Shown in pieces: positions 2,564 through 33,570 of a stretch of DNA of 64,000 bases (the stretch's first letter is position 1; every line of letters starts with the position of its first letter). The stretch lies in IMG/VR virus record IMGVR_UViG_3300026549_002477; one strand, written 5' to 3'. Source of the stretch: an uncultured virus (IMG/VR IMGVR_UViG_3300026549_002477). Lineage: Duplodnaviria; Heunggongvirae; Uroviricota; Caudoviricetes. The notes under the pieces are model-generated. The model was not told the origin of the DNA. It searched no databases and was given only the letters and a program-made list of their open reading frames with translations. The position numbers were made by a program, and so were the translations under genes.

Positions 2564-3466
2564 ATGAGAAAGCGAATAATGGCATTGTCAATGGCTATGA
2601 TGCTGTGTATGACTGTTCCATTTATAAGTTTTCATGCTGCTTCATTGGATGATGTTGTTGGACAACAGACAACAACTGAGCAGACCCAGGGAAATTCTAA
2701 TAGCCAATATCAAGGATCTACTAATCAGAGTTCAACTGATCAGAGTTCAGCTACTACTGATCCATTTAATAATCCAAACAGTGCAGCTAATGTACAGAAT
2801 CAAAGTCAGGGTAATACAGGTGATAGTAATTTAAATCTTCCTAAGGATAGTTCAGCTGAGGAATTTGCAAATGCTCTTTCAGAGGGAACAAACTTCACAG
2901 AGGAAACATACCAAGAGACAACAGCTGTTACAAATAAAATCAAAGCAGTTGTATCTCCATTGATTCAGATTTTTTTGTACTTGATAATGATTCTTATGAC
3001 TATAAGAGTTGTTATTGATCTTATATATATTGTATTTCCGCCTATAAGAGCTTTCCTTTCAAATGGGCATGTTGGTAATGCAGCTAGTCAAGGAACAATG
3101 CAAACTGGTGGCTTCGGTGGTGGATACGGCGGTGGTATGGGTTCCTATGGTGGATTTAGCGGAGGCATGGGTGGCATGAATGCTGCTAATAACATGGCAA
3201 TGCAGCAGCAGAACAACCCAAGTAATGTAAGTCGCATACAGTGGGTGTCCCAAGCAGCATTAAATGCTGTTGCATCTGAAGCTGTTGTTGGGACAAATGG
3301 TAAAGCAAATAGCCCACTTAAAGCTTATGCAAAAGACATGATAGTTTTGATGATTGGAGTTCCAATTATGTTGATACTCGCTGCATCTGGAATATTATCA
3401 AAGCTCGGATTTGCTTTAGCAAGCGTCATTAGTGGAGTGATAGAGTCAATCATCACCAGCTTCTGA
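2564..3466 (+). CDS. Signal-peptide membrane protein, paralog 1 of the D-x-x-Y-x-x-F-P two-TM family
   Basis: AGGAGG RBS, N-terminal signal peptide, TM ending in DLIYIVFPPIR, Gly/Met-rich loop, VSQAALNAV...SPLKAYAK, then a second TM region. Confidence 0.85.
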   Translation: MRKRIMALSMAMMLCMTVPFISFHAASLDDVVGQQTTTEQTQGNSNSQYQGSTNQSSTDQSSATTDPFNNPNSAANVQNQSQGNTGDSNLNLPKDSSAEEFANALSEGTNFTEETYQETTAVTNKIKAVVSPLIQIFLYLIMILMTIRVVIDLIYIVFPPIRAFLSNGHVGNAASQGTMQTGGFGGGYGGGMGSYGGFSGGMGGMNAANNMAMQQQNNPSNVSRIQWVSQAALNAVASEAVVGTNGKANSPLKAYAKDMIVLMIGVPIMLILAASGILSKLGFALASVISGVIESIITSF

Positions 3467-3486
3467 GTTTAGGGAGTGATTAGAAT

Positions 3487-3798
3487 ATGTCTAGAGTATC
3501 TGATGTAATTGCCAGTAAGCATAAAATAGAAAATGCCAGACGTAACAAGCGAAATCGTGAAATGACGAACTTGAGAAACATGTCTGAGTATAAAGCTAGA
3601 CTATTTGATGAAATGCAGAAAATCGAGGTAATGCTATCTGATCCAGATATAGATGCAGTAGTCATAACAATACCGGATGATCAGTTTAGTAGATTTTCAG
3701 CTTCAATATATTCTCCTGAAATGTCAGCATATGACATAAGACAAGATAATATAAAAGCAAATGTTTTTTATATAAGACATAAGTTTGTTTCTATCTAA
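3487..3798 (+). CDS. Hypothetical protein
   Basis: GGGAG RBS, 103-aa ORF in operon context. Confidence 0.8.
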   Translation: MSRVSDVIASKHKIENARRNKRNREMTNLRNMSEYKARLFDEMQKIEVMLSDPDIDAVVITIPDDQFSRFSASIYSPEMSAYDIRQDNIKANVFYIRHKFVSI

Positions 3799-3837
3799 AT
3801 AAGATCAATAAGGTACATTTGAAAGGAAAACAAGATC

Positions 3838-4203
3838 ATGGACATGCAAGAAAGATATAATGACATTGCAAAGAAAACAGGTTTATCTGAAAATATAATT
3901 AGGAGTGTATTTAAAGCTACTAGAGACAGTGTTATAGAGTCTTTGAAACATGGTGAAAGAGCAACAATTCCTGGTATTTGTAATTTCACACCTGATTTAA
4001 GAGTAGGGTATGACTTTGGCGGAGACAAGAAATATTTTGTTAAAGCAAAGATTAAAGTTTCATCAACTTTTGAAAAAGAATTAAAAGAGAGCAGTGTAAT
4101 TGATCAAGACATTAAGAATGGAAAAACAAGTGTAGAAGATCTTACATACGTTAGTGATGGATCTGGAATCATTAGAACTACACAGATAAACAGCCTGCTC
4201 TAA
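3838..4203 (+). CDS. HU/IHF-family DNA-binding protein
   Basis: IAKKTGLSENIIRSVFKATRDSVIESLKHGERATIPGICNF matches the HU/IHF N-terminal pattern (IA..TGLS...L..GE.V.I.GFG.F). Confidence 0.8.
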   Translation: MDMQERYNDIAKKTGLSENIIRSVFKATRDSVIESLKHGERATIPGICNFTPDLRVGYDFGGDKKYFVKAKIKVSSTFEKELKESSVIDQDIKNGKTSVEDLTYVSDGSGIIRTTQINSLL

Positions 4204-4225
4204 TAATTTAGAGGTGATTAAGTTT

Positions 4226-4828
4226 ATGACAGGCCCAACACATAGACAGTACAGTATCTGTTTTGCACTTGTAACAGCAATGCTATTTTTTAAACTTGAT
4301 ATAACAGCAGTTAATTACTACATTGCATTGCCAGTATTAATAATGACAGCAAAAGCTGGGGCATTATTTCCAGATGTTGATCATGATTGGAGAAATGTAC
4401 ATGATAAGACTATTATAAATAGAATTATAAATTTCTTAATACATATAACCGGTGGGAGGCATAGAAGCTGGCAGACACATAGCTGGGATATATGTTTATG
4501 GTTTACAGTTGGTGCTTACTTCATTCCAATAAGAATATTTAGAGATGGGATATTAACTAATGTAAATAGTGAGATACTTCAACTACTATTACTAGGATTT
4601 GCAAGTGGGTGGATAAGTCACTTAATAGCCGATATGTTTACATCAGCAGGTGTAAGAGTCATATGTTTTTTAAATAAAAAGGTAGCATTCGTACCTAAGA
4701 AGTTAGGGCCAATAGTATTTAAAACTGGAGCATCATGGGAGATGTTCAACTACAAATTTATGAGAGTTGTAAACGTAATACTCGGATGCTTATGCTTAAT
4801 ATACCCAGCAGTTTATGATAAGATATAA
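4226..4828 (+). CDS. YdjM-like membrane metal-dependent hydrolase
   Basis: MTGPTH, GALFPDVDH, HRSWQTHS and GWISHLIADMFT.GV motifs with several TM segments. Start placed at the ATG after GAGGTG. Confidence 0.85.
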   Translation: MTGPTHRQYSICFALVTAMLFFKLDITAVNYYIALPVLIMTAKAGALFPDVDHDWRNVHDKTIINRIINFLIHITGGRHRSWQTHSWDICLWFTVGAYFIPIRIFRDGILTNVNSEILQLLLLGFASGWISHLIADMFTSAGVRVICFLNKKVAFVPKKLGPIVFKTGASWEMFNYKFMRVVNVILGCLCLIYPAVYDKI

Positions 4829-4850
4829 CAAATTTTGGAGGAAAGGCTTT

Positions 4851-5699
4851 ATGAAGGCAAAGATTAAAAGCAGTTTAATCATTTTAATGATATTAGCTGC
4901 AATACTTGCTAGTTTTCTATCTATAACAAGTGTGAATGCAGCCAGTACAAAAACATATACATCCGTACAGGAAGTAGCAGATGAATTTGGACCTGGTGGT
5001 TCTGCTGGAAACACTTCTTGGCCAAACGGTTTAGCTAGCTATTTCACAACTGAGGATCATAGTAGTTATGATTCTTGGTCTAGTGTGTCAGTCGGTGGCC
5101 AGACATACTATTATGTAACTAACCAAGCAAGTACAATTCTAGCACAGGCTTCTCAAACTGCAGCAGCATCAAATGCAGTGGCATCTGATTCACAGGCAGT
5201 TAGCCAGTATGAAGATATTACATCAGGAATGAACATAAGAGCTGATACTGAACAAGGTAGAAAAGTTTTAACTCCACTTGTTGGTGTTATTAATATAATC
5301 CTTGGTGTTATAGTTATTGGTATTGGTGTTATGACTACTGTCGTTACTGGTCTTGACATTGCATATATTGTATTCCCTACATTCCGTACTGGTGTTGACA
5401 CATCAAAGAGTGCTGGTGGTGGTATGATTGGTGCACATTCTCAAGATAAGAATGGCGATGGTGAAGGTAAATTAAGGCTTGTATCTGATGAAGCAGTATT
5501 TGCAGTGAAGTCAGCAGATACAATTGAAAGTGGTAAAAATCCACTTGCTATATATTTTAAGAAACGTGCATTAGGCTATATTTTACTCGCAATAGTACTG
5601 TTTGTATTCCTTACTGGTCGTATTACAATATTTACCACTGCTGCTCTTAAGTTAGTTGATGGTATACTTAAACTTATACAGGGTGCATCCCTTCATTAA
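4851..5699 (+). CDS. Signal-peptide membrane protein, paralog 2 of the two-TM family
   Basis: GGAGG RBS, signal peptide ending VNA, TM-DIAYIVFPTFR, VSDEAVFAV...NPLAIYFKKR-TM. Confidence 0.85.
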   Translation: MKAKIKSSLIILMILAAILASFLSITSVNAASTKTYTSVQEVADEFGPGGSAGNTSWPNGLASYFTTEDHSSYDSWSSVSVGGQTYYYVTNQASTILAQASQTAAASNAVASDSQAVSQYEDITSGMNIRADTEQGRKVLTPLVGVINIILGVIVIGIGVMTTVVTGLDIAYIVFPTFRTGVDTSKSAGGGMIGAHSQDKNGDGEGKLRLVSDEAVFAVKSADTIESGKNPLAIYFKKRALGYILLAIVLFVFLTGRITIFTTAALKLVDGILKLIQGASLH

Positions 5700-5719
5700 A
5701 TTAATCAGTAATTAAGTTT

Positions 5720-5794
5720 AGCAGGCAGGTAAGGTTCTTACCTGCCTGTTTTTATGTAGATCTTAAAGGTCAGATAGATAATATCTGGCCTTTT
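5720..5794 (+). terminator. Two tandem terminator-like hairpins
   Basis: agcaggcaggtaag/cttacctgcctgtt + T-run (5720-5753) and aaaggtcagata/tatctggccttt + T (5765-5794). Confidence 0.8.
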
Positions 5795-5876
5795 ATCATA
5801 TAAAAAATTTGAATGGGCATCAAGATTAACTTGTTATAGTATAATCAATAAAAATATAAATTATTGAGGTGATAAC

Positions 5877-6380
5877 ATGTCAAATACTACAACCGTTCAA
5901 GGTATAGAAAACTCTATAGAGAATACTTTAAGAAATACTGGTGGTATAGATAACTTAATGGCTATGGAAACAACTATAACTATTCAAAAAGTATTTTCTG
6001 TTATATTGGGTATACTAGCAATATTAATATTAATAACAATTCCATTAACTGTATTATTTGAGCTATGCTACATGAATTTTCCAATAATCAGAGAAAAAAT
6101 TGATCAAGCTGTTGATGAGCATGGTGGATTTATAAAAAGGTCATTACAAATGACCTTGAAAGATGCTATGAAAGCTATTGAAATAGCAGAAACAAATCCT
6201 GATGGGCCATCAGTAATGACAGTATACTTGAAAATCAAAATAAAAGCAGTATTTATTGCTATGTTCTGCTTGATGCTAGTGCTATATGGAACAGATACAA
6301 TAGTTGCGACTGTGTCAGGATGGATGAAAGGACTATATGATGTAGCAGTAAATTTCTTTTCTAGCATTGGTGGATTTTAA
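5877..6380 (+). CDS. Small membrane protein, paralog 3 of the two-TM family
   Basis: GAGGTG RBS. TM-ELCYMNFPIIR...DAMKAI...SVMTVYLKIK-TM, the same layout as 2564 and 4851 but with no long N-terminal region. Confidence 0.85.
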   Translation: MSNTTTVQGIENSIENTLRNTGGIDNLMAMETTITIQKVFSVILGILAILILITIPLTVLFELCYMNFPIIREKIDQAVDEHGGFIKRSLQMTLKDAMKAIEIAETNPDGPSVMTVYLKIKIKAVFIAMFCLMLVLYGTDTIVATVSGWMKGLYDVAVNFFSSIGGF

Positions 6381-6399
6381 TTAAAATAGAGGTTGTAGC

Positions 6400-9300
6400 A
6401 TGACTATCTTTAATAAAATCAAAGAATTTTTTAAAAAACATAAGTTATCAAGCAATCAGAGAACTCGAGTAGGAATTATAGGCTGCTTGGTGTTAGCATC
6501 TGCAGGCTTGTATGGATGCGGTGATAGTACTGTTATAACCATTCAGTTAACTGGAATGGCCTCACAAATCGAAGGCAGACTTAGTGCTAATTTAAATATA
6601 GCTGCTACATTAGCCGGAAAGGATACATCCAGTGGCGAAACAATACTTAAACTTGGAAGCGACGAAGATGTTAAAGCTGGCGTTGGAGCAATTCTTTCAG
6701 AATCAGATTATCAAACTATAGTAGACAGTATACAAACTGTAGAAAACTTTTATGGAATAAAAGAAGCAGCAAGTAGTAGTGCTAAAGACCTAGATAGTGC
6801 TAAATTAACATCACTAGCCGCATTTGTTTATCAGTTTAGACCAATAACACCAGGATATTTAATTAAACATGAAGGTGAATCTGCAGCAACAAAAGTTGCA
6901 ACAGAGGTTGATGATAATGGGGCAGCTACAAAGTATCAGTGGAGAATTACAGCAAGTGCAAATGCAAATGATGATGACTACGGAAAGCAAATTGATCAAG
7001 ATTTAAATTTGTCAGATACATTTGATCCAGGAGCTGATCCTAATATATATTCTGCTGATGATGCATTTGGTGGTGATGGTACATCTGGGGCTGGCAAAAA
7101 TGATGATGGATTTTTTAGTGCAACTGACTATTTGATACATAATAGCTCTTACATGCTTGATGCAAAAGTTGTGGGTGGATCATCATCTGGAGCTGAAAGC
7201 TATTTGGATAGCACAGAAATTGAGGATACACCAGTATATCAATATGATAGTTATACATACATTTCAATAGTTGGAAACCAAAAATTCAATAATTCAGGTA
7301 AAGGGCAAGACCCAGATGCAGGTAAGACAGATGAAGTTGTGTCTGCAATAAATGATGGATTTAACTTTACAATTTATGTGTTGAATCCGGCGAAGTTTAC
7401 TAGAGAAGATCAGCAGGGCATAGACGGATTGTACGCAATGTTTAGAGACTCTGGGTTTATAACTGTTCAGAGTGGTGCAATAAATGGCATAATATCTAAT
7501 TATTTTAATATGGCTACTGGAGAGGATAAAGATGGAAACGTAGTAACCAATATAAAGTTATTTTCTGATGAAAATAAAGAGGTTGGAGATAAGTATAAAC
7601 TAATAAGATATGATGATCCTAGTGTACTTGGCGATAATCTTGGGGGTTCTAGAGAAGATTACCTTGAGTATAATTCAAAACCAGGAAATCCATTGGTATA
7701 TTATGAATATGGCATGCCAGCTATGGCTGTCATGTTTATGGAATTTGATCAGGATACAGTTGATTTATATGAACAAATAATAGGAAGTCAGACTGGCAAG
7801 TGGTTACTTATATCAACAAATGGATATAATAATGCATATTTATTACAGTATCCTGTATCAGTAGTAACTGGTTTAGAGCAAGAGTCAGATGGCAGAATAA
7901 AAGCTATTCTTGCTCAATCAGACAATATGGAAGTTAATGTATGCACTGGTAAAATAATAAAAACTTGGAATGATGGAAATGAGAAGGCTATAGACACAGA
8001 AACTTATTACAGAGTTGGTGGAGCAGAGAATGATTCAGAGCAAAGCCTAGCATCTTTCATTGTAAGTGGATATACAACATGTACAGTTCAAGTATATAAT
8101 CTTAACAAGGATACAAGTTTAACCAACACAGATATAGACGTTTATGCAGGGAGAATAGTGTTAAGAGACTATCTAGAAGGTATGTATGCACCTGGAGCAG
8201 TTCAGGATAGCCCTGATGAAAAATTAGTTTGCCTTGGTAGGATGATAAGATTGAACTTAAAGTTTGAGTCTCTTGATCCAAATGCTGTTAGTGTAGATAC
8301 AACTACTACAACAAGCAAAGCAAATAAACCATTATATGAAGCTGATTACAGAACTGCTGATATAGTACAAGCAAGTGTGATAGGAGCATTTAATATTGAT
8401 AAAGATATAAGTAAAACAAAATCAGATAATACAGTTGATAATGCAACCAACACAACCATTGTAGCAGATGCTGTATCTAGTACATCAGGAACTGGTGATT
8501 TTCCAAATTTATCTCCAAATTTATCTCCAAATTTATCTCCAAATTTATCTCCAAATTTATCTCCAAATTTATCTCCAAATTTATATACAAATTCAACAGA
8601 AGTGGAAAACTTTGATGAACTGCAGGATGGTTTATTTAAGCAACTTGTTGGAAATGAAGTGGCAAGTTATTACGGAAACAAAACGTTTAAGAACTTTACT
8701 TCTGTAGATAAAGATGTTCTCACTTATCTTGTGATAGGGAGTTCTGACGGGTATGATAAGTTGTCATTAACAGATCAACTTAGAGTAATAAAATCTCTTG
8801 GGTGGAGCTCAGCGGCTGATGCAGAGACTAAAAAGATAAAAAATACTGCAACAACACTAGATGCAGAAGCAATCTTAATAGAATTGTACAAGGCTGTTAA
8901 AAGTGTATATAATACACCTATAACTGAAAATGAATTAAAGTCTGGATCTGTTTTCATGCCATCATATGATAATGATAAAGCAGCAAATGCAGCAATAGCT
9001 GCAAGGAAACTTAAGGATGCAAGAATAAAAAATTCATCCGACACTAAAGATATAGATAAACAAAGTTCAGACATGGCTATGCAGTTATCTGCTTCTGGCA
9101 TAAATACAGATCCAGATACTTTAAGTCATTTAACAAATATAGATGGTGGAACAATATATAATACAGCAGCATTTTGGAATAGAGATGATCCAATAGGATA
9201 TTATATAGGTACTGATGGAAATAAGATAGATCAATTTGGGGACATTCATGTTTATGACATCATGGATGCAAAAGAGATAATAAATAATAATAAAGTTAAA

Positions 9301-10164
9301 TACTTTACAGAATCAACAGTACAGAGTTTTCAAACAGACGAAACATCTGATCCATCAACTAATTCCACGAGTTCTGCTGAAAAAGCAAAGAAGTTAAATC
9401 AACTTGCAACTACAGGATACGGTACAGATGCAGCTGCTGGAACACAAATTATGTGTACTGCTGAAATGCCATCTTCAACTATAGATGCTGTTGATTATAC
9501 TAAAGATAAGGATTATGCAACTCAGATTTCTACAGTTCAGCGCTTTTATGTAATAGCAGTTAAAGGTGATTTGTTCCAGAGGCAGTTGTTCAGTAACTGG
9601 ATTGATGTACAGAGTGATACAAACTGTTTGGATTGGTGGAATAAATATTTAGCTGCATGTGGAATGAATTATAACGTTTCTCACCAAAACATCAATGATT
9701 GGTTAACTAATAACTATGCATATGAAATGTCTCAGAATGGCATTGTTATTCTTGATCTCAATACAGTTGGATGGATTCAAAGAATGTATGATGCTGAACA
9801 GAGTAACTCAGTAGCAGTTAAGCTAAGAACAATATTTATGGTTTTAGGTTACATATTAATAGCCTATGCAGCAGTATTATTACTTTGTTGGACTCTAGAT
9901 GTTAATGTTGGATTGAATGTTGGATTACTTGAGAAAGCTACATTTGGACATTGGATCGCAGTTAAATATAAGTCAGATGTACCAGCAAAAGATAGTGAAC
10001 GAAGATCATATGTTTATGGATCATCAATGTTAATAAGGTTTGTATTAATGATCATTGTAGCTATCATAATGATCAACTTCAATGTGTTTAGATTAGTAAT
10101 AGTATTTGTAAAAGTCTTTGGTAAGTTAGCAGAACATATTCAAAATGTATTACAAGGTAATTAA
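6400..10164 (+). CDS. Large membrane/surface protein (1254 aa), putative lipoprotein with C-terminal TM helices
   Basis: AGAGG RBS, lipobox-like LASAGLYGC, long polar region, two hydrophobic segments at the C-terminus, internal PNLS repeat. Confidence 0.85.
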   Translation: MTIFNKIKEFFKKHKLSSNQRTRVGIIGCLVLASAGLYGCGDSTVITIQLTGMASQIEGRLSANLNIAATLAGKDTSSGETILKLGSDEDVKAGVGAILSESDYQTIVDSIQTVENFYGIKEAASSSAKDLDSAKLTSLAAFVYQFRPITPGYLIKHEGESAATKVATEVDDNGAATKYQWRITASANANDDDYGKQIDQDLNLSDTFDPGADPNIYSADDAFGGDGTSGAGKNDDGFFSATDYLIHNSSYMLDAKVVGGSSSGAESYLDSTEIEDTPVYQYDSYTYISIVGNQKFNNSGKGQDPDAGKTDEVVSAINDGFNFTIYVLNPAKFTREDQQGIDGLYAMFRDSGFITVQSGAINGIISNYFNMATGEDKDGNVVTNIKLFSDENKEVGDKYKLIRYDDPSVLGDNLGGSREDYLEYNSKPGNPLVYYEYGMPAMAVMFMEFDQDTVDLYEQIIGSQTGKWLLISTNGYNNAYLLQYPVSVVTGLEQESDGRIKAILAQSDNMEVNVCTGKIIKTWNDGNEKAIDTETYYRVGGAENDSEQSLASFIVSGYTTCTVQVYNLNKDTSLTNTDIDVYAGRIVLRDYLEGMYAPGAVQDSPDEKLVCLGRMIRLNLKFESLDPNAVSVDTTTTTSKANKPLYEADYRTADIVQASVIGAFNIDKDISKTKSDNTVDNATNTTIVADAVSSTSGTGDFPNLSPNLSPNLSPNLSPNLSPNLSPNLYTNSTEVENFDELQDGLFKQLVGNEVASYYGNKTFKNFTSVDKDVLTYLVIGSSDGYDKLSLTDQLRVIKSLGWSSAADAETKKIKNTATTLDAEAILIELYKAVKSVYNTPITENELKSGSVFMPSYDNDKAANAAIAARKLKDARIKNSSDTKDIDKQSSDMAMQLSASGINTDPDTLSHLTNIDGGTIYNTAAFWNRDDPIGYYIGTDGNKIDQFGDIHVYDIMDAKEIINNNKVKYFTESTVQSFQTDETSDPSTNSTSSAEKAKKLNQLATTGYGTDAAAGTQIMCTAEMPSSTIDAVDYTKDKDYATQISTVQRFYVIAVKGDLFQRQLFSNWIDVQSDTNCLDWWNKYLAACGMNYNVSHQNINDWLTNNYAYEMSQNGIVILDLNTVGWIQRMYDAEQSNSVAVKLRTIFMVLGYILIAYAAVLLLCWTLDVNVGLNVGLLEKATFGHWIAVKYKSDVPAKDSERRSYVYGSSMLIRFVLMIIVAIIMINFNVFRLVIVFVKVFGKLAEHIQNVLQGN
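8503..8586 (+). repeat. 12-bp in-frame tandem repeat (PNLS x6 + PNLY)
   Basis: ccaaatttatct repeated perfectly 6 times, then ccaaatttatat. Confidence 0.97.
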
Positions 10165-10302: not shown

Positions 10303-10845
10303 GTGTTATTAACAGCTGCTGTCATAGAAACTAAAGATGGAAAGCAATATAGAATACTAGATACATCTGATGGCTGTTGCTATGACATTGAATATGCTAA
10401 GATATATAATGCTATTTGCAGGAAGACTATAGATGATAAGAATAATACAAATAATAAAGTGTTATTAAAACTTGTAAATGGTGAAGATCTTAAGGGATTT
10501 AGACAAAGCATTAGTATAACTTCATCTAAACATAACATAGTATCATCAAGCAAGTGTTTAATAAAGCAAGATAATTTATATAGTATATTAAACATTCCAA
10601 GATTAAATGAAAACAAAGAGTTAATTGACAGCAATGATGGGCATAGATATATACCTATTGGATGGCATGGATTTGGTAAAAATAGATGCTTTTACTGTAT
10701 AGATTATAAATGTCAGCTTAATAAATTTAATTATTCTAAGATGGAACAATTAATCAACGATGGGAATATTAATGGAGCGCATATTATAAATGACAGAATC
10801 CATCTATATAAAGATCTAAACAATGAGCTTGGAGTTAGAGTATGA
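10303..10845 (+). CDS. Hypothetical protein, distantly resembling the repeated DUF3892-like module
   Basis: GGAGGG RBS and GTG start. Segments YRILDTSDG..YDI and MEQLINDGNINGAHI resemble the module in 37846, 59187 and 60578. Confidence 0.75.
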   Translation: MLLTAAVIETKDGKQYRILDTSDGCCYDIEYAKIYNAICRKTIDDKNNTNNKVLLKLVNGEDLKGFRQSISITSSKHNIVSSSKCLIKQDNLYSILNIPRLNENKELIDSNDGHRYIPIGWHGFGKNRCFYCIDYKCQLNKFNYSKMEQLINDGNINGAHIINDRIHLYKDLNNELGVRV

Positions 10846-11279
10846 AATTTATAGTGGGAGTTTATAAAGAATCTGCAGACAATAGTAATGGGAAGGTTAT
10901 AAAAGCTTGTTTGGTGTATGACAATCATACTAAGCAAGTGTCTGAGTTATTGTCTTTAAATACTTTAAAAAATATGTTAGCTAGTGGAATAAACATAATG
11001 GGAACACATTTAGCTGTTGGAGTTGATGGACAAACAAAGATAAAGTTTACTCAACAGAATTATGATTATAGATCTTTAGCTGAAGTTGATGAGTTTTCAA
11101 ATCTTATTAAACCTGGATTGCCAGTTATAGTCGGAAAGCGTAAAGATGGAAAATATGTTTCTGTTGATTATAAAGGAAACATACAATACGTAGATAAACA
11201 TGATTTAAATTGGTATTCTTACTTGGGCATAACCAAAGCAAACTATATATGCAAATCAAGCTCTGAAGAAGTGTATTAA
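10842..11279 (+). CDS. Hypothetical protein
   Basis: Overlaps the upstream stop (ATGA), GGAG RBS. The N-terminus (FIVGVYKE...IKACLVYD) resembles the N-terminus of 60578. Confidence 0.78.
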   Translation: MKFIVGVYKESADNSNGKVIKACLVYDNHTKQVSELLSLNTLKNMLASGINIMGTHLAVGVDGQTKIKFTQQNYDYRSLAEVDEFSNLIKPGLPVIVGKRKDGKYVSVDYKGNIQYVDKHDLNWYSYLGITKANYICKSSSEEVY

Positions 11280-21036: not shown

Positions 21037-22458
21037 ATGTCACAGATGGGCAGATATATTGTTAATGAGACAATGCATAATTTTGATAAGATCAAGATTG
21101 ATGATATTGATTTTATAAAAAACGATTTATCTTTATATGTTGTCAATGTCAATAAGACTTGTGATAATGATATAAACAAGTATTACAAGTTCATTAAAAT
21201 GGCGCTTAGAAAAGGTAACAGAGTTATTCTTCTAAGTAAAAATGATGGAAATACATCATTTAGAACTCTGGCAAACTTGATGCTTTCTTATGATGCATAT
21301 GACATTTATAAGATGCCAGGAGAAAAAATATTAACTGCTGATTATCTTGATAAGTTAATCAATCATAAGCCAACATTTAATGAGGTAGAAACTTATGTTG
21401 GTGGTGATGTTGCAGCATATGCTTCTATTGATACTTTGATGATGGGTATTGAGAGTCTTACAGAAGATGGAAATGTAGAAGCATTAGAGAAGTTTATGGA
21501 CAATCATAGTATAAGTCTAGATAGCTTAACTTCTACATTGAATTATATGAAGGGTATTTGTAATAATGTAAATACTAAGGCACAAGTAGAACAGATTGAT
21601 GAACTTAGTAAAAAGATTGAAGAGCAAGAAGCCAAATTAAAAACTCAAAAAGCTGAACTTGCTAAAATGAATACAAGTAATGAAGAACTTCAAGAAATGT
21701 TATCTAACATTAAGACAGAAAATGAAAAACTTAAGAGCACAAACAGAGAACTCCAGAATGATCGTGATGGGCTTGGTGGGTTTACTATCAAATCATATAA
21801 AACAGTTAACATGGGATTGCTTAAATGTACAACTAAAATAGTAATTTATATTAAGGAAATAAGCTATGTAAGGTATGTAAATAGCTTAGTTCATAATATA
21901 ATGTTCCTTCTCAAGTCAAAGGGAGCTAAGGCAAAGCTTCTTATATATGATGACAATCCAGGGTTTGCTAATATATACAATGGATTTACAGTTGTAACAG
22001 GAGATGTTTATAAGAATAGTAAAACTACAATATTGGGTAAATCTTCATCCATTCTTGTAGTTGAGCCTATACAAAATTTATTGGAAGATATACTTCAGTC
22101 AGAAGAAAATCTTGATGTTGTTATAGTTTATGACAGAATGAAGAACACAGAAGATCTTGTTAAAGGTAATCTTGTTACAAAATTCTTTGTAATAAACAGT
22201 ACATCTGATTATAACAATATGCAGGGTAATCTTAAAATTGAGAAGACTTCCAATATAATTATGCCATCTAATTCTTCAATGGTTAACAACAAGAATATTG
22301 TTAATGATCCATTGGATATAGGAACAATACCTGGGTATTCAGGCATGACAGACGTTGCTAAAACGGCTAAGTACTTTAGACTTTTAACATCTAAGAATAA
22401 ATTATTGATTACTGAGATATTTAAAAGATCTAAAGTTGACAAAATAACATCAATTTGA
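21037..22458 (+). CDS. Hypothetical protein with a central coiled coil
   Basis: GGAG RBS, heptad-rich segment (QIDELSKKIEEQEAKLKTQKAEL...), located between the MinD-like and VirB4-like genes. Confidence 0.82.
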   Translation: MSQMGRYIVNETMHNFDKIKIDDIDFIKNDLSLYVVNVNKTCDNDINKYYKFIKMALRKGNRVILLSKNDGNTSFRTLANLMLSYDAYDIYKMPGEKILTADYLDKLINHKPTFNEVETYVGGDVAAYASIDTLMMGIESLTEDGNVEALEKFMDNHSISLDSLTSTLNYMKGICNNVNTKAQVEQIDELSKKIEEQEAKLKTQKAELAKMNTSNEELQEMLSNIKTENEKLKSTNRELQNDRDGLGGFTIKSYKTVNMGLLKCTTKIVIYIKEISYVRYVNSLVHNIMFLLKSKGAKAKLLIYDDNPGFANIYNGFTVVTGDVYKNSKTTILGKSSSILVVEPIQNLLEDILQSEENLDVVIVYDRMKNTEDLVKGNLVTKFFVINSTSDYNNMQGNLKIEKTSNIIMPSNSSMVNNKNIVNDPLDIGTIPGYSGMTDVAKTAKYFRLLTSKNKLLITEIFKRSKVDKITSI

Positions 22459-27604: not shown

Positions 27605-29416
27605 ATGGCTGAAAGAAAAGATTTAACTGGAAAAATGATAGGTAGATACCATGTTGATAAATATTTAGGAAAGAAAAAGTATTTATGTACATGTACAATT
27701 TGTGGAAATCAAAAAGAAGTAGCTGCTTATAACTTAAGAAAAAACTTAAATAATCCAAACTTGTGTTGTAAACAGTGCACAGGAAAGATGCACAAGATGG
27801 TTTATGACAAAGGAATGATAGGGAGAAAGTTTGGAGATCTTACAGTAATAAAGCGTTCACATGATATATATTATTTATGCAAGTGTAAATGTGGTAGAGA
27901 AGAAGAAATAAATCGTAACTATTTGTTAGATGGTTCTATTACAGCTTGTAAATTATGCAGATCATCAAAAGGTATGCAGGATTTACGCGGAAAAACATTT
28001 GGTGATTGGGAAGTAATAGGATTAGATGAATCAGATAATCGTAGAACACATTGGATTTGCAGGTGTAAAAAGTGTGGAAGAACAGTTAGTGTTATAGGGT
28101 ACAATTTAACTTCTGGACACACTACATCATGTGGATGTGATAAACAAATAGATTTAACCGGAAAGCAGTTTGGGCACTGGAAAGTACTAGAGTATGTTGG
28201 TAATGAATTTTGGAAATGTAAATGTGATTGTGGTACAATAAAAAATGTACATAGTTGGGAATTGCGTACTGGTCAGTCAACTTCTTGTGGTTGTCAGAGA
28301 TATGCAAAAATGAAAGCGACCAGCATAGAAAAATATGGGGATATATTTTATAAAAATATTGACAGTCCAAGAACAGAAGAACAAATAAATGCATATGACA
28401 ACTATAATAGTTTGAGGGATTTTATAGATAAACACTTCGAGAACAATATGCCAACAACTAAAGAATTGGCTGATACAAGTGGAATTAATGTAGCAAATAC
28501 TCTAAAAAAGATACATAAAATAAATGCTGAGAATCTTGTGAAAATAGGGGAATCAACAGAAGAAAAAACATTTTATGAGTTCATATATTCTAATACAAGT
28601 CATGATGTTATAAGACATGATAGGAGCCTATTAGGAAATTTAGAAATAGATGTTTACATTCCAGATTTGAGATTAGCTTTTGAATATGATGGTGATCTTT
28701 GGCATAGTGATATATACAAAGATAAAGATTATCATAGAAATAAATCTATCAGATGTGCAAATAAAAATGTCCAATTAATCCATGTATATGAGCATGAGTG
28801 GGTTGGAGAAGACAGAAATAAAATAGAATTATTCATCAAGGATAAATTAGATGAAAACAAAGAAAAGGTATATGCACGTAATACTGAAATAAAGCGTTTG
28901 GGAATAGAAGAAGCAAATGAATTTATAGATAAATATCATTTACAAAAATCTGTAAGTAGTAATATAGCTTATGGATTATATTATAATAATGATTTAATAC
29001 AAGTAATGACATTCTGTAAACCAAGATTTAGCAAAGAATACGAATGGGAAATACTTAGAGAAGTAACTAAATCTGGTATAATTGTTGTTGGTGGAACTGA
29101 AAAATTACTATCAGCATTTAAGAATGAATATAATCCAAGATCAATAATAACTTATGTCAATTTTGATAAATTTATTGGCATAAGCTGGATTAGCAAAGGA
29201 TTTAAAAAAGCTAATCCATTCATGTCAGATATTGACTATGTTTGGGTGTCTGAGTCTAATCCAAGTACATATTATCATAGATATGATACAATGAAACAAA
29301 AATTAATTAAAGCTGGGTTATGTACGGAAGATCAGACAGAAGATGCTGCAATGAGAGCAGCTGGTTTTTTGAAAGTATATGGATGTGGTAACTTAAGATA
29401 CCAGTATATTACTTAG
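27605..29416 (+). CDS. Hef-like homing endonuclease: zinc-ribbon repeats, Vsr/PD-(D/E)XK-like nuclease and C-terminal GNAT-like domain
   Basis: Four DL.GK.FG.W.V...C.C.CG repeats, nuclease motif LEIDVYIPDLRLAFEYDGDLWH, and C-terminal ARNTEIK...FIDKYHLQ...YGLYY...MTF...EWEILR...GG.EKL as in phage Hef-like proteins. Confidence 0.75.
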   Translation: MAERKDLTGKMIGRYHVDKYLGKKKYLCTCTICGNQKEVAAYNLRKNLNNPNLCCKQCTGKMHKMVYDKGMIGRKFGDLTVIKRSHDIYYLCKCKCGREEEINRNYLLDGSITACKLCRSSKGMQDLRGKTFGDWEVIGLDESDNRRTHWICRCKKCGRTVSVIGYNLTSGHTTSCGCDKQIDLTGKQFGHWKVLEYVGNEFWKCKCDCGTIKNVHSWELRTGQSTSCGCQRYAKMKATSIEKYGDIFYKNIDSPRTEEQINAYDNYNSLRDFIDKHFENNMPTTKELADTSGINVANTLKKIHKINAENLVKIGESTEEKTFYEFIYSNTSHDVIRHDRSLLGNLEIDVYIPDLRLAFEYDGDLWHSDIYKDKDYHRNKSIRCANKNVQLIHVYEHEWVGEDRNKIELFIKDKLDENKEKVYARNTEIKRLGIEEANEFIDKYHLQKSVSSNIAYGLYYNNDLIQVMTFCKPRFSKEYEWEILREVTKSGIIVVGGTEKLLSAFKNEYNPRSIITYVNFDKFIGISWISKGFKKANPFMSDIDYVWVSESNPSTYYHRYDTMKQKLIKAGLCTEDQTEDAAMRAAGFLKVYGCGNLRYQYIT

Positions 29417-29425
29417 AGGATTAAA

Positions 29426-30970
29426 ATGAACTTCTCGAATCTAACATCAGATATAGGTATTAACTTGGGAAGTTTGGATACAGCTATAGACTATTTAAAT
29501 GGTAACAGTAGTTTATACGAACCTGAACTAACTGAAGTTAAGCAAAACCTTTTTAATAAAAGAGTCACTACAGACCCTATACAGGTTGTAAAGCCAGCTA
29601 AACCTAGAGCTACAAAGGAAGCAATAGTAAAGAGGTTTAGTTTATTTAATGGTGAAACAGAAAGAATACAAAGTTCATCAGATGAAGATATTGATTTAAA
29701 CTTAGATATTGATGATGAAACATATCAAAATGAAGATCAATCAAGTGAGAGTGTAGAGTTTACAGCTGATGATTTTAATAAAACTAAGAATAAAAATTTG
29801 AATAATTTGAATAAACAGCTTTCAGACGAAATACAGGCTAAAGATGCACAAATATCTTATCTAATGGCTCAATTGCAGGCCAAAAATAATACTGATAGTA
29901 ACATTACTAAAAAATCAGATGACTCTGAAGAAAATTCTGATATAGAGATTGATGATTTTGAGAATTATGATAATTCAGATACAGAAGTAGATAATATAAA
30001 CTTAGAGAATAATCAAGAGACTGAAGATAGTTCATTTGAAATAGAAGATTCATCTGGATATGAAGATGATGAACCAGATGAAGAAGATGAACCAGTTGAA
30101 ACTAATAATCAATCATTTGAAGTGGATGATGAACCAGATGAAGAAGATGGTATATCAATAGATTTCAATGCACCAAATGAATCAAATGATACTGATGAAG
30201 AAGATGGTATATCAATAGACTTTAGTACACCAGATGAATCATATAAACCTAATGAAGTGCCAAAAGTAACTAATGAGACATCTAAAGTAGCTGCTGAAAA
30301 TGATACACAAACAAATAATGATGAAGATGAATTTGATTTTAGTGACTTTGAGACTGATGATGAACCAGATGATGAAGAGCAAGATGAAGACAGCAATAGC
30401 AATGAACAAAACGGTAGTGATATTAGCAATGATGAAATAGATATAGATAGTTTTAGTTTAGATGACACAGAAGATGAGAATAAACAAACTACTGAAGTAA
30501 GAAATGTTACACAGGAAACTGTTAATAAGCCAGTTGAAAATACTAATCAAAATATAAATGATGAGTTGGAATCTCTTAGAAAGCAATTAGCTGAAGCAAG
30601 AGATGAGATAAATAAGATTAAAAATGATAGAACAGCAGATAGAACCAAAGAAGTAAAGAGTAAAAGTATTGAAAATTCAAAACCAAATGCGCCAACATTA
30701 CAAGCTGTTAAGAAAGTTACAAATACAGTAAATAGTGTTTCAAGTACACAACATATTGTACAGAAACCTTCACATGAAAATCCATATGATAATATGACAA
30801 TAGATAAGTTATATGGGTGCGTAAAGGTTTATATGATAAAAGCTGGTGTAACTAGAAGAGCAATAGATTTGGATGTTCTCAATAAAAAATTTGGTTCAGC
30901 TAACATAAGTAAATTAATTAAGAAAAGTTACTTGATCAAGATAGGAAAAGGAGTAACAATAGGAAGATGA
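29426..30970 (+). CDS. Acidic low-complexity hypothetical protein with a small basic C-terminal domain
   Basis: AGAGG RBS, D/E-rich centre with short duplications, coiled coil, basic C-terminus. Confidence 0.82.
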   Translation: MNFSNLTSDIGINLGSLDTAIDYLNGNSSLYEPELTEVKQNLFNKRVTTDPIQVVKPAKPRATKEAIVKRFSLFNGETERIQSSSDEDIDLNLDIDDETYQNEDQSSESVEFTADDFNKTKNKNLNNLNKQLSDEIQAKDAQISYLMAQLQAKNNTDSNITKKSDDSEENSDIEIDDFENYDNSDTEVDNINLENNQETEDSSFEIEDSSGYEDDEPDEEDEPVETNNQSFEVDDEPDEEDGISIDFNAPNESNDTDEEDGISIDFSTPDESYKPNEVPKVTNETSKVAAENDTQTNNDEDEFDFSDFETDDEPDDEEQDEDSNSNEQNGSDISNDEIDIDSFSLDDTEDENKQTTEVRNVTQETVNKPVENTNQNINDELESLRKQLAEARDEINKIKNDRTADRTKEVKSKSIENSKPNAPTLQAVKKVTNTVNSVSSTQHIVQKPSHENPYDNMTIDKLYGCVKVYMIKAGVTRRAIDLDVLNKKFGSANISKLIKKSYLIKIGKGVTIGR

Positions 30971-33570
30971 AAAACAAAGCAGTAAAAACATTAGTATTAT
31001 TACTTAGCTTAGGGATGTCTGCATCATCTTTTACTGGCTGTGGAATGACACAGGTTACAAAAGGTGGTGTTGAAAGTTATGAAAAGGCACCAATTACAAC
31101 TCAGCAAGAGCTAACTGATTATTATGCTAAGCAAGTTAAGTATAGTAATGAAAGCATTGAGAAAAGAAACATAATAAAGCATGAAACTACATATAATTTG
31201 CATGATGTTGATGAAGACACCAAGCAGCAGCTAATTGACTTAACAGCTCAAGAGGAGCAGGTTTTGTCCGAAGATGACTATCCTGTTGAGGATATTGAAA
31301 CTCAAGGACTTATATCAGAAGACAATTTTAATTATATTAAGTCAGTTATTGATGGATATACTTTGACAAAAACTGATCAAAGTATCAGTAACATAAAAGG
31401 TGCTCTTGGATACTATTTTGTTGATGTTACATACAATATAGCACCAGCACCAGCTGGTAAGTTTAAAAAGGCAGCACAGTTGATGGGTATTAGGGGTGCT
31501 TATCAGACAATGTATGATAGCAAAACAAATACTACATATCAAGGGATTAATAAAAATTATCTTAGTGTGCTGGCTGATGCACTCACTAAATATTATACAG
31601 AAAACGATATAAAGAAGAAAGTATACTATGATGGGTATGGTTCATTCCAGATATCTGATAGTGACATTCCTGGTGGTGGAGAAGGTTGGAAATCACACCC
31701 AAGTTTTTCTGAACTTACTGCTGATGTTCTTGAGTCTGATAGTGAAGATACAGATTCTGAGGAAGTAAACCCAGAGGATGAGATCATAGTACCAACTGAT
31801 GAAGATTATGAAGCAGAAACAACTGATGACACAGAGAATGCTGATGACACAGATACTAAAGATACTAAAGATACTAAAGATACTAAAGATACAACTTCCG
31901 ATGCTAATATAGCAAATACAAAATTGAATGATGCTATAAGTGATAGTGATGAGCAGGAAAGCTTGTATGATACAGATATAGACAGTACGAAGTTTGTAAT
32001 TCCATATGTAAGAAGAGTTGATAGTAACATTGGAGAAATTAGAAGTAGTCTTGGTATGACAGTGGATGGCGCATATAATTATATTCCACTTGATTACTTG
32101 TATGAAAGACCATCAGGGAACGGCAATATATCTGGATATGGAATACTTCAGGAAGGTTCTAACGGATTGTCAATGTTTGGTTTTGACAGAAATAATCTTA
32201 GTGGAACATTGACTATGAGATATGTTTTTAAAGAAAGTTCTGATGGAAGTGGTAAGATTTACGGTTATGATACTTATGTAACTGATATAAACATTGATAG
32301 TGGTATTGATGTATCGAGCAATGATGTTTACATGCCGGATTATCTTAAAACAAGCATTGAGTCAGTTGTAGATAGATACGATAGGCTTCAAGCAAATGCT
32401 GATCTTGAGGGTATGATATCTGGTGGCCTTTGTGAAGATCTTGGGTATCCAGTATTAAGAGATTTCCAGCAGGTTTGCAGCAATACAACAAATTATACTT
32501 CAGTTTTCAATAAGTGTTTGGTTAGAAATTCTGCTGAGAATGCTTATCTTATTCAGATTACAACATATACATCTGAAGGACCTAAGGATGTAGATAAATA
32601 TGGTTCATATAAAGATACATATTTCATGGTTGTTCAGCAGCAGGGAACTGATTTCAAGATCATTGATACTCTTAGAACAAAGAGAGAAATGGTTAGAGAG
32701 CCTGATATAGTTCCAGATAGCTCAACAACAAATCGTTTGGTAGCTTTGAATTTGGCTGGTAAGGTTTCTGATGACAGTAAGGAAGAAGTTCAGGAGTTAA
32801 TGACCAACCTTTACAATGCTCTTATCAACCAAGTTAATGATGTTTCTCAAGCTGAAAATGGAGTTGTTGACGGCGTTGATAAAGATGGAAATGCCATTCA
32901 GCTTACAAGAGGTATTCCGAATCTATTTGAAAGTGATCCAGCTCTGTTATCTACTGAACAAAGAAATTATGATATTCAGTTGCTTGAAAACATTGTAACT
33001 AGATTTGGTGGTAGTACTAAGGTAGTTTACAAGGGCAAGATTACTGAATGGATTAGTGGTTATAAGAATCAAGTTGAGTTTGTAACCAAAGAGCTTGCTA
33101 CTTATGAAGGACATGAGAGTGGGTACTATCAGGAAGTTTATTACTTGGTTAATAAAGTAGATGGCGTTTGGTATATTGAAGAGAGAACTGTTATTGATGA
33201 AAATGCCAATGTAACTAATGGTGATCCTAGTAGCTCTGACGATGATAGACTTGATCAGATAAATAATGAAATTGATAGTGACGAACCTGCCGTTGATCTT
33301 TCAGTAGATAAGGAAATCACATCAACTAATATTGATTCAAGTAGCAACACTGAGATTTCTGAAGATGCTTCAAGTGAAACTACAGAACTTTCTGAAGATG
33401 CTTCAAGTGAAACTACAGAACTTTCTGAAGATGCAATTAGTGGAGATACAACAAGTGAAGGTTCTATTGATGAAGCAGTAGATGAAAATAATGATCAAGC
33501 TGAATCAGATGCTGGACAGAATGTTGAGCAGGAAACAGCCGATGAATCTGCAGCTGATCAGGACAAGTAA
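30967..33570 (+). CDS. Lipoprotein (867 aa), candidate TcpC/VirB8-like with NTF2-like domains
   Basis: Lipobox-like SSFTGC. Two C-terminal units end in DTYFMVVQQQGTDFKII and YYLVNKVDGVWYI, typical terminal strands of NTF2-like folds (inference). Confidence 0.7.
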   Translation: MKNKAVKTLVLLLSLGMSASSFTGCGMTQVTKGGVESYEKAPITTQQELTDYYAKQVKYSNESIEKRNIIKHETTYNLHDVDEDTKQQLIDLTAQEEQVLSEDDYPVEDIETQGLISEDNFNYIKSVIDGYTLTKTDQSISNIKGALGYYFVDVTYNIAPAPAGKFKKAAQLMGIRGAYQTMYDSKTNTTYQGINKNYLSVLADALTKYYTENDIKKKVYYDGYGSFQISDSDIPGGGEGWKSHPSFSELTADVLESDSEDTDSEEVNPEDEIIVPTDEDYEAETTDDTENADDTDTKDTKDTKDTKDTTSDANIANTKLNDAISDSDEQESLYDTDIDSTKFVIPYVRRVDSNIGEIRSSLGMTVDGAYNYIPLDYLYERPSGNGNISGYGILQEGSNGLSMFGFDRNNLSGTLTMRYVFKESSDGSGKIYGYDTYVTDINIDSGIDVSSNDVYMPDYLKTSIESVVDRYDRLQANADLEGMISGGLCEDLGYPVLRDFQQVCSNTTNYTSVFNKCLVRNSAENAYLIQITTYTSEGPKDVDKYGSYKDTYFMVVQQQGTDFKIIDTLRTKREMVREPDIVPDSSTTNRLVALNLAGKVSDDSKEEVQELMTNLYNALINQVNDVSQAENGVVDGVDKDGNAIQLTRGIPNLFESDPALLSTEQRNYDIQLLENIVTRFGGSTKVVYKGKITEWISGYKNQVEFVTKELATYEGHESGYYQEVYYLVNKVDGVWYIEERTVIDENANVTNGDPSSSDDDRLDQINNEIDSDEPAVDLSVDKEITSTNIDSSSNTEISEDASSETTELSEDASSETTELSEDAISGDTTSEGSIDEAVDENNDQAESDAGQNVEQETADESAADQDK
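31852..31893 (+). repeat. 9-bp in-frame tandem repeat (DTK x4)
   Basis: gatactaaa x4 plus a partial copy. Confidence 0.92.
33358..33434 (+). repeat. 33-bp in-frame tandem repeat (SEDASSETTEL x2 plus partial)
   Basis: tctgaagatgcttcaagtgaaactacagaactt x2, then tctgaagatgc. Confidence 0.92.

Follow-up and report, generated by a model that had tools for sequence, protein, structure and literature searches.

The stretch analysed here, 64,000 nucleotides (nt) of the uncultured-virus record IMG/VR IMGVR_UViG_3300026549_002477 (the window), comes from an element of about 400 kb and carries, between positions 2564 and 33570, a locus of 18 open reading frames (ORFs), all on the + strand, in which a VirB4-like ATPase is followed by an FtsK-family ATPase. 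In our view this locus probably supplies the mating pore and the DNA-translocation apparatus of a type IV secretion system (T4SS) of the tip type described for the Bacillus plasmid pXO16, in a Clostridia-borne variant carried by a giant, single-orientation, pXO16-like plasmid-like element of the gut or rumen; elements of this family measure 250-720 kb. An earlier note on this DNA had proposed that a giant element here uses VirB4 and FtsK proteins in an unusual DNA-transfer machine of Gram-positive kind, and profile and fold comparisons, gene order and collinearity with pXO16 all support that proposal. The novelty that it implied holds in part: the machine is indeed divergent, but it belongs with the pXO16 tip-type T4SS, already described if little understood, and is therefore less unprecedented than it had seemed.

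Families in the window, whose 44 ORFs we refer to by their first coordinate, were named by Pfam, PHROG, NCBIfam and PDB sequence searches. Transmembrane (TM), signal and lipobox features come from a crude script combining Kyte-Doolittle hydropathy with regular expressions, not from a trained predictor. The locus ORFs are real genes rather than chance readings, because 16 of the 18 find protein counterparts in the same order, at 27-63% identity, in a related 268-kb IMG/VR record (G001; L016-L029). Over the whole window, 37 of the 44 ORFs are matched in that record, 36 of them collinearly. Direct family matches inside the locus are confined to HU-like, YdjM, MinD/ParA-type, FtsK_SpoIIIE and homing-endonuclease-like proteins.

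The two ATPases and the proteins beside them

Five consecutive genes form the centre of the locus (lengths in amino acids, aa):

16867..18096, + strand: hairpin-TM protein, 409 aa, with an N-terminal TM hairpin at residues 32-86 and a conserved soluble domain
18117..21014, + strand: three-part MinD-like protein, 965 aa (PF01656, 7.4e-07)
21037..22458, + strand: conserved protein with a central coiled coil, 473 aa
22478..24751, + strand: VirB4-like (HerA/DUF87-class) two-domain ATPase, 757 aa
24923..27475, + strand: FtsK/SpoIIIE-family ATPase, 850 aa (PF01580, 6.9e-13, residues 483-614)

Taken alone, 22478 has no Pfam, PHROG, NCBIfam or PDB sequence match, and its score against DUF87 is 15.4 bits, under the 23.2 cut-off. 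Among 20 close homologues scanned, DUF87 was found in all 20, AAA_10 in 10 and P-loop_TraG in eight. The family is large: 383 of 7999 candidates scored are relatives at E<=1e-3 (the 120 listed share 56-73% identity), and an exhaustive profile search gave 319 representatives at 50% clustering. In an alignment of 102 family members, reaching down to 19% identity, G356, K357, D379 and E607 are invariant, so that both the Walker A motif (GGGKS) and the Walker-B-like motif (WEE) are kept. A 20-sequence alignment matched VirB4 only at E 1.1, and the 22478 model of mean predicted local distance difference test (pLDDT) 51.5 was useless; the 102-sequence profile matches the VirB4 domain of Thermoanaerobacter (PDB 4ag5) at 6.2e-22 and TrwK/VirB4 at 1.3e-3, and the AlphaFold2 model built from it has a mean pLDDT of 89.0. 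With this model as query, the top eight Foldseek matches are all R388 TrwK/VirB4 chains (1.4e-16 to 2.1e-12, over 629-744 columns). VIA-align superposes it on 4ag5 with Z 32.6 (root-mean-square deviation 3.7, 365 of 374 residues aligned) and on R388 VirB4 (8rtd_O) with Z 26.4 over 515 residues, spanning model residues 108-753 and thus both domains. Other P-loop proteins score lower: DndH-C 26.2, HerA 25.0 and TrwB 20.4, with B204 of Sulfolobus turreted icosahedral virus (STIV) in the fold list at Z 18 and TcpA (6o1x, by entry title) among the P-loop-core relatives. Because family profile, Foldseek and VIA-align all favour VirB4, the predicted structure supports a VirB4-like protein over both domains, and the first reading of 22478 as VirB4-like is borne out by profile and fold alike.

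The second ATPase, 24923, combines an FG/GN-rich low-complexity N-terminus, two TM helices at residues 173-236 and one motor domain; PF01580 and the two hydrophobic helices confirm the membrane-borne FtsK-family protein that had been recognised here from the letters. The low-complexity tract (24923-25400) contains repeats of NDPFGG. The protein is FtsK-class, not VirD4-class, and is a TcpA-like coupling or translocase ATPase, an activity that we infer from homology. TcpA itself is reportedly closer to FtsK, going by the title of a 2023 paper by Traoré known from a reference list.

A five-sequence profile of 24923 matches EccC5 at 1.5e-11 and FtsK at 6e-09, the best solved matches being EccC5 and YukB of the type VII secretion system (T7SS), and the best sub-threshold NCBIfam families are EssC and EccC (29-36 bits against cut-offs of 346-778). 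Could the locus secrete proteins, or deliver effectors on contact in the manner of a T7SS or an effector T4SS, and move no DNA at all? Its large surface proteins could then serve as substrates or adhesins. EssC/EccC proteins, however, have several FtsK domains, and 24923 has a single one. No window ORF matches WXG100 or EssA/EssB-like proteins, and the partner ATPase is of the VirB4 kind, a T4SS hallmark. In the accessible literature, moreover, the homologous locus of pXO16 transfers plasmid and chromosomal DNA. We therefore hold protein secretion to be very improbable, the least probable of the alternatives discussed here, and retain DNA transfer as the probable function of the locus.

Upstream of the ATPases lies a protein whose nature was misjudged in part. 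The 965-aa product of 18117 consists of a conserved N-domain (about residues 1-150), a long, acidic, glutamine/asparagine-rich (Q/N-rich) variable linker and a C-terminal domain resembling MinD, ParA and bacterial tyrosine kinases, the CbiA/MinD/ParA-type match covering residues 701-913. The linker (window positions 18600-20200) contains NPNGMNM repeats, and its length varies widely among orthologues. The earlier note had called the protein a Walker-A-degenerate, TadZ/CpaE-like ATPase. The degenerate MinD-like character stands; the assignment to TadZ/CpaE, with the positioning role drawn from it, is not supported, and ATPase activity is improbable. TadZ has a non-ATPase N-domain followed by a MinD-like domain with an atypical P-loop, and 18117 resembles it in this two-part build. 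Unlike TadZ/CpaE, it sits in a window where Pfam finds no Tad pilus genes among the 44 ORFs, and its profile points elsewhere in the PDB (CapB 5e-08, Soj 4e-04, FlhG/MinD 1e-03), with TadZ not among the solved-structure matches listed. The P-loop reads GCGGCGTS, without a lysine, in six of seven aligned orthologues and GGPASGKS in the seventh (L009, 6604-8556); in 18117 (about residues 700-712) two cysteines replace the two lysines of the deviant Walker A motif. Because the P-loop lacks the catalytic lysine, 18117 is probably not an ATPase, and to judge from its sequence it is probably a pseudo-ATPase scaffold.

The 473-aa protein encoded at 21037 has only sub-threshold matches to coiled-coil families and is present in all six multi-gene relatives. 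It matches the positionally equivalent 412-aa protein of pXO16 weakly (hhalign E 0.0017, probability 15%). The idea that it is a second degenerate MinD paralogue was dropped, as its profile against the MinD-like protein gave a probability of 0.3%. The hairpin-TM protein encoded at 16867 is a candidate VirB3-like partner of the VirB4-like ATPase.

Correspondence with the tip region of pXO16

A tblastn search with 22478 against plasmids returned 24 records (21 from Bacillus, two from Paenibacillus, one from Elizabethkingia), with B. thuringiensis plasmids of ~349.6 kb as the best matches (31% identity, 84% coverage, 1e-80). One such plasmid, pBTHD789-1 (NC_018516) of Bacillus thuringiensis serovar israelensis, is pXO16 according to the accessible part of the literature. 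On the profile of the 22478 family the pXO16 protein scores 695 bits, and generic VirB4s reach 79-81 bits.

What is known of pXO16 makes this relationship informative. Reviews and other accessible texts place the tip ('transfer of israelensis plasmid') genes within the 'replication region' of the plasmid; the locus spans 25 kb and 16 coding sequences, was bounded by bioinformatics and experiment, and is needed for conjugation. Two ATPases and a cell-wall hydrolase are its assigned parts, and those texts leave relaxase and origin of transfer (oriT) unidentified. The same reviews describe transfer as single-stranded, distantly T4SS-related and similar to that of pCW3, and as fast and aggregation-mediated, moving non-mobilizable plasmids as well as chromosomal fragments of at least 791 kb. 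Nearly all pXO16 genes lie on one strand; a 'phage-like nature' has been suspected, and plaques were never found.

Protein BLAST between the locus and pXO16 gives eight ordered pairs, and 11 across the window, GyrB, GyrA, DnaB and a ParB-HNH protein included. Along the block the matches are as follows, all window genes being on the + strand:

Clamp loader (869): AAA ATPase in the corresponding place on pXO16, 30% identity, 6e-53
YdjM-family protein (4214): 'metal-dependent hydrolase' in the corresponding place on pXO16, 1.7e-08
294-aa TM protein (4815): pXO16 protein, 9e-12
1820-aa protein (11302): 1834-aa pXO16 protein, over the C-terminal 470 aa, 23% identity, 4e-22
409-aa protein (16867): 445-aa pXO16 hairpin-TM protein at the same relative position, 2e-18, profile 50 bits
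VirB4-like ATPase (22478): pXO16 protein, 31% identity over 652 aa, 4e-91
FtsK-family ATPase (24923): pXO16 FtsK/SpoIIIE protein, PF01580 in both, 25% identity, 2e-30, profile 190 bits
SNF2 helicase (34049): DEAD/DEAH helicase in the corresponding place on pXO16, 32% identity, 3e-74

The pXO16 protein at the position of the HU-like gene adds a weak PF00216 match (5.6e-4). Plasmid and window thus share one ordered set running from clamp loader to SNF2 helicase and on to GyrB, GyrA and DnaB, and the families share a giant replicon with nearly all genes on one strand and no recognisable relaxase. They differ in host (Bacilli versus Clostridia), in size (350 kb versus contigs of 400-720 kb among the relatives) and in sequence, at 23-32% identity. 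In pXO16 the giant protein and its neighbours are differently ordered, and the window has in addition the 1254-aa and 867-aa envelope proteins and the homing-endonuclease-like gene. At the MinD-like position pXO16 encodes a 306-aa protein with an N-domain and an acidic linker, from which the MinD-like domain is absent; its likeness to the N-domain of 18117 (E 0.026, probability 1.9%) is suggestive by eye only. The pXO16 locus also holds a 710-aa protein with a weak NlpC/P60 match (7e-4), which has no tblastn match in the window.

The arrangement is not peculiar to one contig. Related loci were found in IMG/VR (five contigs of 26-268 kb) and in metagenome-assembled genomes of Lachnospiraceae and Clostridia, and each of the six multi-gene loci keeps, within its own limits, the following order: giant protein, 409-aa protein, MinD-like protein, 473-aa protein, VirB4-like ATPase, FtsK, homing-endonuclease-like protein, 514-aa protein, lipoprotein and SNF2 helicase. 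Together with the 268-kb record, these loci establish conservation of gene order. A third lineage is represented by a 143-kb B. subtilis plasmid with five collinear homologues, namely the 409-aa protein (8e-08, same relative position), the MinD-like protein, the VirB4-like ATPase, FtsK and a ParB-domain protein. The MinD-like counterpart has the same three-part architecture and again a lysine-less P-loop, GQEGSGVTT. Plasmids of this kind (~140-215 kb, from Bacillus subtilis/velezensis, e.g. NZ_CP032858) share with the window the DUF87 and FtsK genes and the lysine-less MinD-like protein; they differ in showing 24-27% identity, an M23 peptidase beside VirB4, an FtsK protein of 1127 aa and no giant membrane proteins within the 38 kb inspected.

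How does the locus compare with better-known Gram-positive systems? The pCW3 Tcp system of Clostridium perfringens and the Tn916/ICEBs1 T4SS (MPF_FA/FATA) likewise have a VirB4 and, in place of VirD4, an FtsK-like coupling protein anchored in the membrane. In contrast to these, the locus has far larger subunits and extra MinD-like and coiled-coil subunits, and Pfam, PHROG, NCBIfam and PDB profiles detect no homologue in the window of TcpC/VirB8-like or TcpH/VirB6-like proteins, of a TcpG-type hydrolase or of a TcpM/MOB relaxase.

From these comparisons a working model can be drawn. A hexameric VirB4-like 22478 and the membrane-anchored, FtsK/TcpA-like 24923, whose homology is established, would power transfer, with the FtsK/TcpA-like translocase standing in for VirD4 as coupling protein. 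Topology and conservation suggest that the membrane channel may consist of the 1820-aa polytopic protein together with the small TM proteins, and the 409-aa hairpin-TM protein would dock on VirB4 in VirB3 fashion. The lysine-less MinD-like protein and its 473-aa coiled-coil neighbour would act as a non-enzymatic scaffold or assembly factor, the large lipoproteins may have envelope-spanning or contact roles, and DNA would be processed without a canonical relaxase, as in pXO16.

Envelope proteins, small genes and flanks

The other genes of the locus and its two immediate neighbours are:

869..2317, + strand: clamp-loader-like AAA+ protein, 482 aa (PF13177 DNA_pol3_delta2, 4.4e-33; phrog_5846, 2.5e-58)
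2564..3466, + strand: membrane protein, 300 aa, signal-like N-terminus and two TM segments; no family match, collinear in G001
3487..3798, + strand: conserved protein, 103 aa; no family match, 47% identity and collinear in G001
3838..4203, + strand: HU-like DNA-binding protein, 121 aa (PF00216, 2.5e-07)
4214..4828, + strand: YdjM-family membrane metal-dependent hydrolase, 204 aa (PF04307, 3.8e-11); 63% identity in G001
4815..5699, + strand: membrane protein, 294 aa, three hydrophobic segments; member of a small paralogous family
5877..6380, + strand: protein with two TM segments, 167 aa; weak paralogue of 4815
6400..10164, + strand: envelope protein, 1254 aa, signal or lipobox-like N-terminus and two C-terminal TM segments; fast-evolving
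10303..11279, + strand: two small ORFs of 180 aa (10303) and 145 aa (10842); no match in G001
11302..16764, + strand: polytopic membrane protein, 1820 aa, signal-like N-terminus and about six TM segments
27605..29416, + strand: homing-endonuclease-like protein, 603 aa, zinc-ribbon repeats and a nuclease-like core
29426..30970, + strand: protein of 514 aa; no family match, only the C-terminus conserved
30967..33570, + strand: predicted lipoprotein, 867 aa, lipobox FTGC at about residue 22
34049..35704, + strand: SNF2-family helicase, 551 aa (PF00176 and PF00271); 71% identity in G001

The 1254-aa and 1820-aa membrane proteins and the 867-aa lipoprotein lie where they had been described, backed by the hydropathy and lipobox script. 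The largest of them, 11302, has 97 homologues without any Pfam domain and only weak leads in the atlas (TrbL and CTnDOT_TraJ clusters at 0.83-0.84, under the 0.9 level); its topology and conservation make it a candidate channel protein with a VirB6/TcpH-like role. No PDB profile match was found for the 1820-aa, 409-aa or 867-aa proteins. Homologues of 6400 number six, none with a Pfam domain: the closest spans the whole query (100%) at 96% identity, the next 40% of it at 63% identity, and four divergent ones align over 17-27% at 32-37% identity. Its C-terminal 330 aa match G001, the atlas offers no usable match, and the protein is a candidate surface or adhesion component. The predicted lipoprotein 30967 (28-38% identity in four relatives) is likewise a candidate cell-envelope or surface component, and the 514-aa protein before it is matched over 61-262 aa of its C-terminus in four relatives.

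Among the smaller products, 4815 matches x4696 of pXO16 (9e-12) and, more weakly, x2165 and x5694; 5877 matches the same paralogues weakly (6e-4 and 5e-3). The HU-like protein is a possible DNA-bending accessory factor, to judge from its family. The ORFs 10303 and 10842, the two locus ORFs missing in G001, are variable inserts; they have no family match except a negligible one for the 145-aa ORF (NCBIfam, 17.9 bits against a cut-off of 581).

The clamp-loader gene is the upstream backbone neighbour and marks where the conserved block begins, and the SNF2 helicase gene is the conserved downstream neighbour just past the locus end at 33570. The flanks as a whole encode, besides these two, GyrB-like and GyrA-like proteins, a DnaB-like helicase, a ParB-HNH protein, a GGDEF-EAL protein and translation initiation factor 3 (IF3). 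The + strand holds every large ORF of the window, GC content is 0.30-0.38 (about 33%) throughout, and every one of 32 two-kb windows shows positive GC skew; tRNA and Rfam family searches of the window found none. The clamp-loader gene is separated from the first gene of the locus by 247 bp that contain a perfect inverted repeat of 16 nt around a 12-nt loop (2345-2388), probably a terminator. The intergenic inverted repeats were considered as oriT candidates and rejected; because they look like ordinary post-gene hairpins, we claim no oriT.

Several genes farther downstream, all on the + strand, are worth recording. IF3 (59967-60467) matches both Pfam domains, at about 2e-20 and 3.5e-20, and is 53% identical to its counterpart in G001. 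A DUF2201 metallopeptidase/VWA-like protein of 843 aa, followed by an AAA_5/MoxR-like ATPase (60476-63998), forms a pair that is kept in G001. The window encodes a GGDEF-EAL protein (54644-55969) and G001 three GGDEF proteins (L022, 13921-14823; L024, 8571-9506; L025, 14659-15720); the elements therefore carry genes of cyclic di-GMP signalling.

Plasmid-like element, virus and the missing relaxase

If the locus is a conjugation module, why does its carrier stand in a virus database? IMG/VR files the five related records as viral as well, three of the five as 'provirus'. The gene content of G001, the largest of them, points another way: 254 of its 257 ORFs (>=100 aa) lie on one strand, and PHROG searches (E<=1e-8) with every one of these ORFs found no terminase, capsid, portal, sheath or baseplate. 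Its 'head maturation protease' match is ClpP (PF00574, 281 bits), and its 'minor tail protein' match is an NlpC/P60 domain. The cargo includes an actin-like partition protein, family-A DNA polymerase, ClpP/ClpX-like proteins, a class-A penicillin-binding protein, S-adenosylmethionine synthetase and PPK2, as well as MscS-like and AI-2E transporter proteins, McrBC, many homing endonucleases and RNA-repair enzymes. Strand bias, cell-like cargo and the lack of virion genes suggest that this 'viral' record is a plasmid-like element. The window itself has no terminase, major capsid or portal gene by Pfam and PHROG.

A huge phage, or a virion-making replicon derived from one, would use the module for genome delivery, packaging or envelope remodelling instead of conjugation. 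Beyond the viral filing, phage-like cargo speaks for this (HNH/GIY-YIG homing endonucleases, RNA ligases, tRNA nucleotidyltransferase, a Thg1-like enzyme, sigma factors and IF3), as does the fact that FtsK/HerA-class ATPases package DNA in membrane-containing viruses, STIV B204 among them (Z 18). Phage G (JN638751; L032, 21195-25337) even encodes two adjacent VirB4-fold ATPases, Gp155 and Gp156 (3-4e-16, annotated 'VirB-like'), and reviews, in their accessible parts, voice the suspicion of a 'phage-like nature' for pXO16. Phage JL and A7KUX5 also give VirB4-fold matches, at 1e-15 to 1e-16. What phage G shares, however, is the generic VirB4-class ATPase: on the profile of the 22478 family gp155 scores 79 bits against 695 for pXO16, so that identity with the phage G module was rejected. 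The other four module profiles (A7, A3, A5, A4) have no match in gp153, gp155, gp156, gp159 or gp160, and when every protein of the window was compared by tblastn with 72 kb of phage G, three trivial matches were all that appeared (E 0.03-0.06). No annotated phage matches 22478 by sequence. Terminase_6N is above cut-off in none of the five related records, its sole weak matches lying inside the FtsK ORF, and virion genes are absent from the 257 ORFs of G001. Finally, the homologous pXO16 locus is, in the literature open to us, needed for conjugation. A virion-making element is thus improbable in our estimation, and the plasmid-like element remains our preferred carrier for the module.

Another kind of giant replicon offers a closer parallel in concept. 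The conjugative 'Hodor' megaplasmids of the human gut are, in the accessible text of a 2026 bioRxiv preprint (PMC12934698), Bacillota elements of >300 kb misfiled as huge phages, with a divergent T4SS and no canonical relaxase; the same text describes sizes of 211-389 kb, 44.6-47.1% GC, and genes for VirD4, a MOBH-like HD nuclease, Rep_3 and sortases. The window differs in its GC content of about 33% and its FtsK-type coupling ATPase, and none of the five relatives has TIGR03760 (MOBH). Neither Rep_3 nor sortase was detected among the 116 of 257 G001 ORFs that were scanned with Pfam at 1e-7. Identity with the Hodors was therefore rejected on GC, size and gene content, as given in their published description. 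In that preprint text pXO16 has 0 occurrences, and term searches of two huge-phage preprints found no mention of VirB4, T4SS or pXO16. We found no literature linking pXO16 to giant gut elements in a search that excluded subscription journals and preprint supplements.

Family scans (Pfam, PHROG, NCBIfam) of the window ORFs found neither a relaxase nor a peptidoglycan-hydrolase domain, in agreement with what had been noted from the letters. One explanation would be that double-stranded DNA passes through the FtsK-type motor without nicking, in the style of Streptomyces TraB or pELF, with VirB4 serving assembly. The motor is indeed FtsK-class and not VirD4-class, no relaxase of six families was found in five relatives, none is known for pXO16, and a 2026 paper, as far as its accessible text goes, argues that FtsK-type rings pass double-stranded DNA in pELF and lists TcpA of pCW3 among the wide-pore rings. 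On the other hand, atypical relaxases are easily missed (those of pCW3 and, by the accessible text, of the Hodor plasmids needed special searches), and there is a conserved candidate nuclease:

50611-52341, + strand: ParB_N and HNH protein, 576 aa

It matches an 'HNH endonuclease' of pXO16 (4e-34), a ParB-N protein of the B. subtilis plasmid (4e-31), whose gene lies immediately downstream of the FtsK gene, and a G001 protein at 58% identity. Being conserved in all three lineages, the ParB-HNH protein is a candidate, on sequence grounds, for the DNA-processing enzyme of the transfer system. Passage of double-stranded DNA is accordingly unlikely in our view, if less so than a virion-making element.

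A second nuclease-like gene lies within the locus and had gone unmentioned in the earlier note. The homing-endonuclease-like 27605 matches phrog_3339 'homing endonuclease' at 2.4e-77 and phrog_559 at 1.1e-65, and a gene of its type follows the FtsK gene in all five relatives that extend past the ATPase genes. It is present in one copy in the window, tandemly duplicated in L002 (14691-17697) and accompanied by an extra copy in L010 (21220-21993); pXO16 lacks it at the position after the FtsK gene. As a candidate for the missing nickase it was judged unlikely, given the strong homing-endonuclease PHROGs, the duplication in relatives and the absence from pXO16.

Several points weigh against a tip-type conjugation module, the viral filing and the relaxase result among them. 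PF03432, TIGR03760, PF08751, PF03389, PF01076 and PF02486 are all absent from the five related records (about 765 kb), which may be fragments, as contigs of the family reach 600-720 kb. A cell-wall hydrolase of the tip type (TipB) has no equivalent in any ORF of the locus, nor is there a cell-wall hydrolase elsewhere in the window, where the NlpC/P60 proteins of pXO16 (710 aa) and G001 (894 aa) have no homologue; in G001 this protein lies about 64 kb away. The VirB6-, VirB3- and VirB8-like roles are without a sequence match (no PDB profiles, atlas leads below 0.9). The assigned function would follow from 23-32% identity to pXO16 proteins, and equating the two tip ATPases with the matched DUF87-like and FtsK proteins is our deduction, made because reviews name two ATPases and the region holds only these two. 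A viral fold library indicates that jumbo Bacillus phages, too, have VirB4-class ATPases, and with 64 kb seen of a 400-kb contig, and relatives of up to 720 kb, capsid genes may possibly lie elsewhere.

We tentatively propose, as a possibility that falls short of our confidence in the module itself, that pXO16-like conjugative plasmids of 250-720 kb in gut and rumen Clostridia, misfiled as huge phages or proviruses, form a large undescribed clade. Joined by pXO16 and the plasmids of the B. subtilis group, they could make up a distinct, Bacillota-wide class of relaxase-less T4SS, whose core would comprise the VirB4-like and FtsK-like ATPases, the hairpin-TM protein, a lysine-less MinD-like scaffold and a giant polytopic channel, with DNA processed by a non-MOB nuclease for which the ParB-HNH protein is the leading candidate.

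Transfer of pXO16 is experimentally real yet mechanistically opaque. The occurrence of the module in hundreds of divergent giant elements supplies the comparative depth to define its core and to nominate the missing parts. A set of very large gut elements now filed as viruses would more likely be conjugative plasmids, which bears both on virome catalogues and on estimates of gene flow among gut Clostridia.

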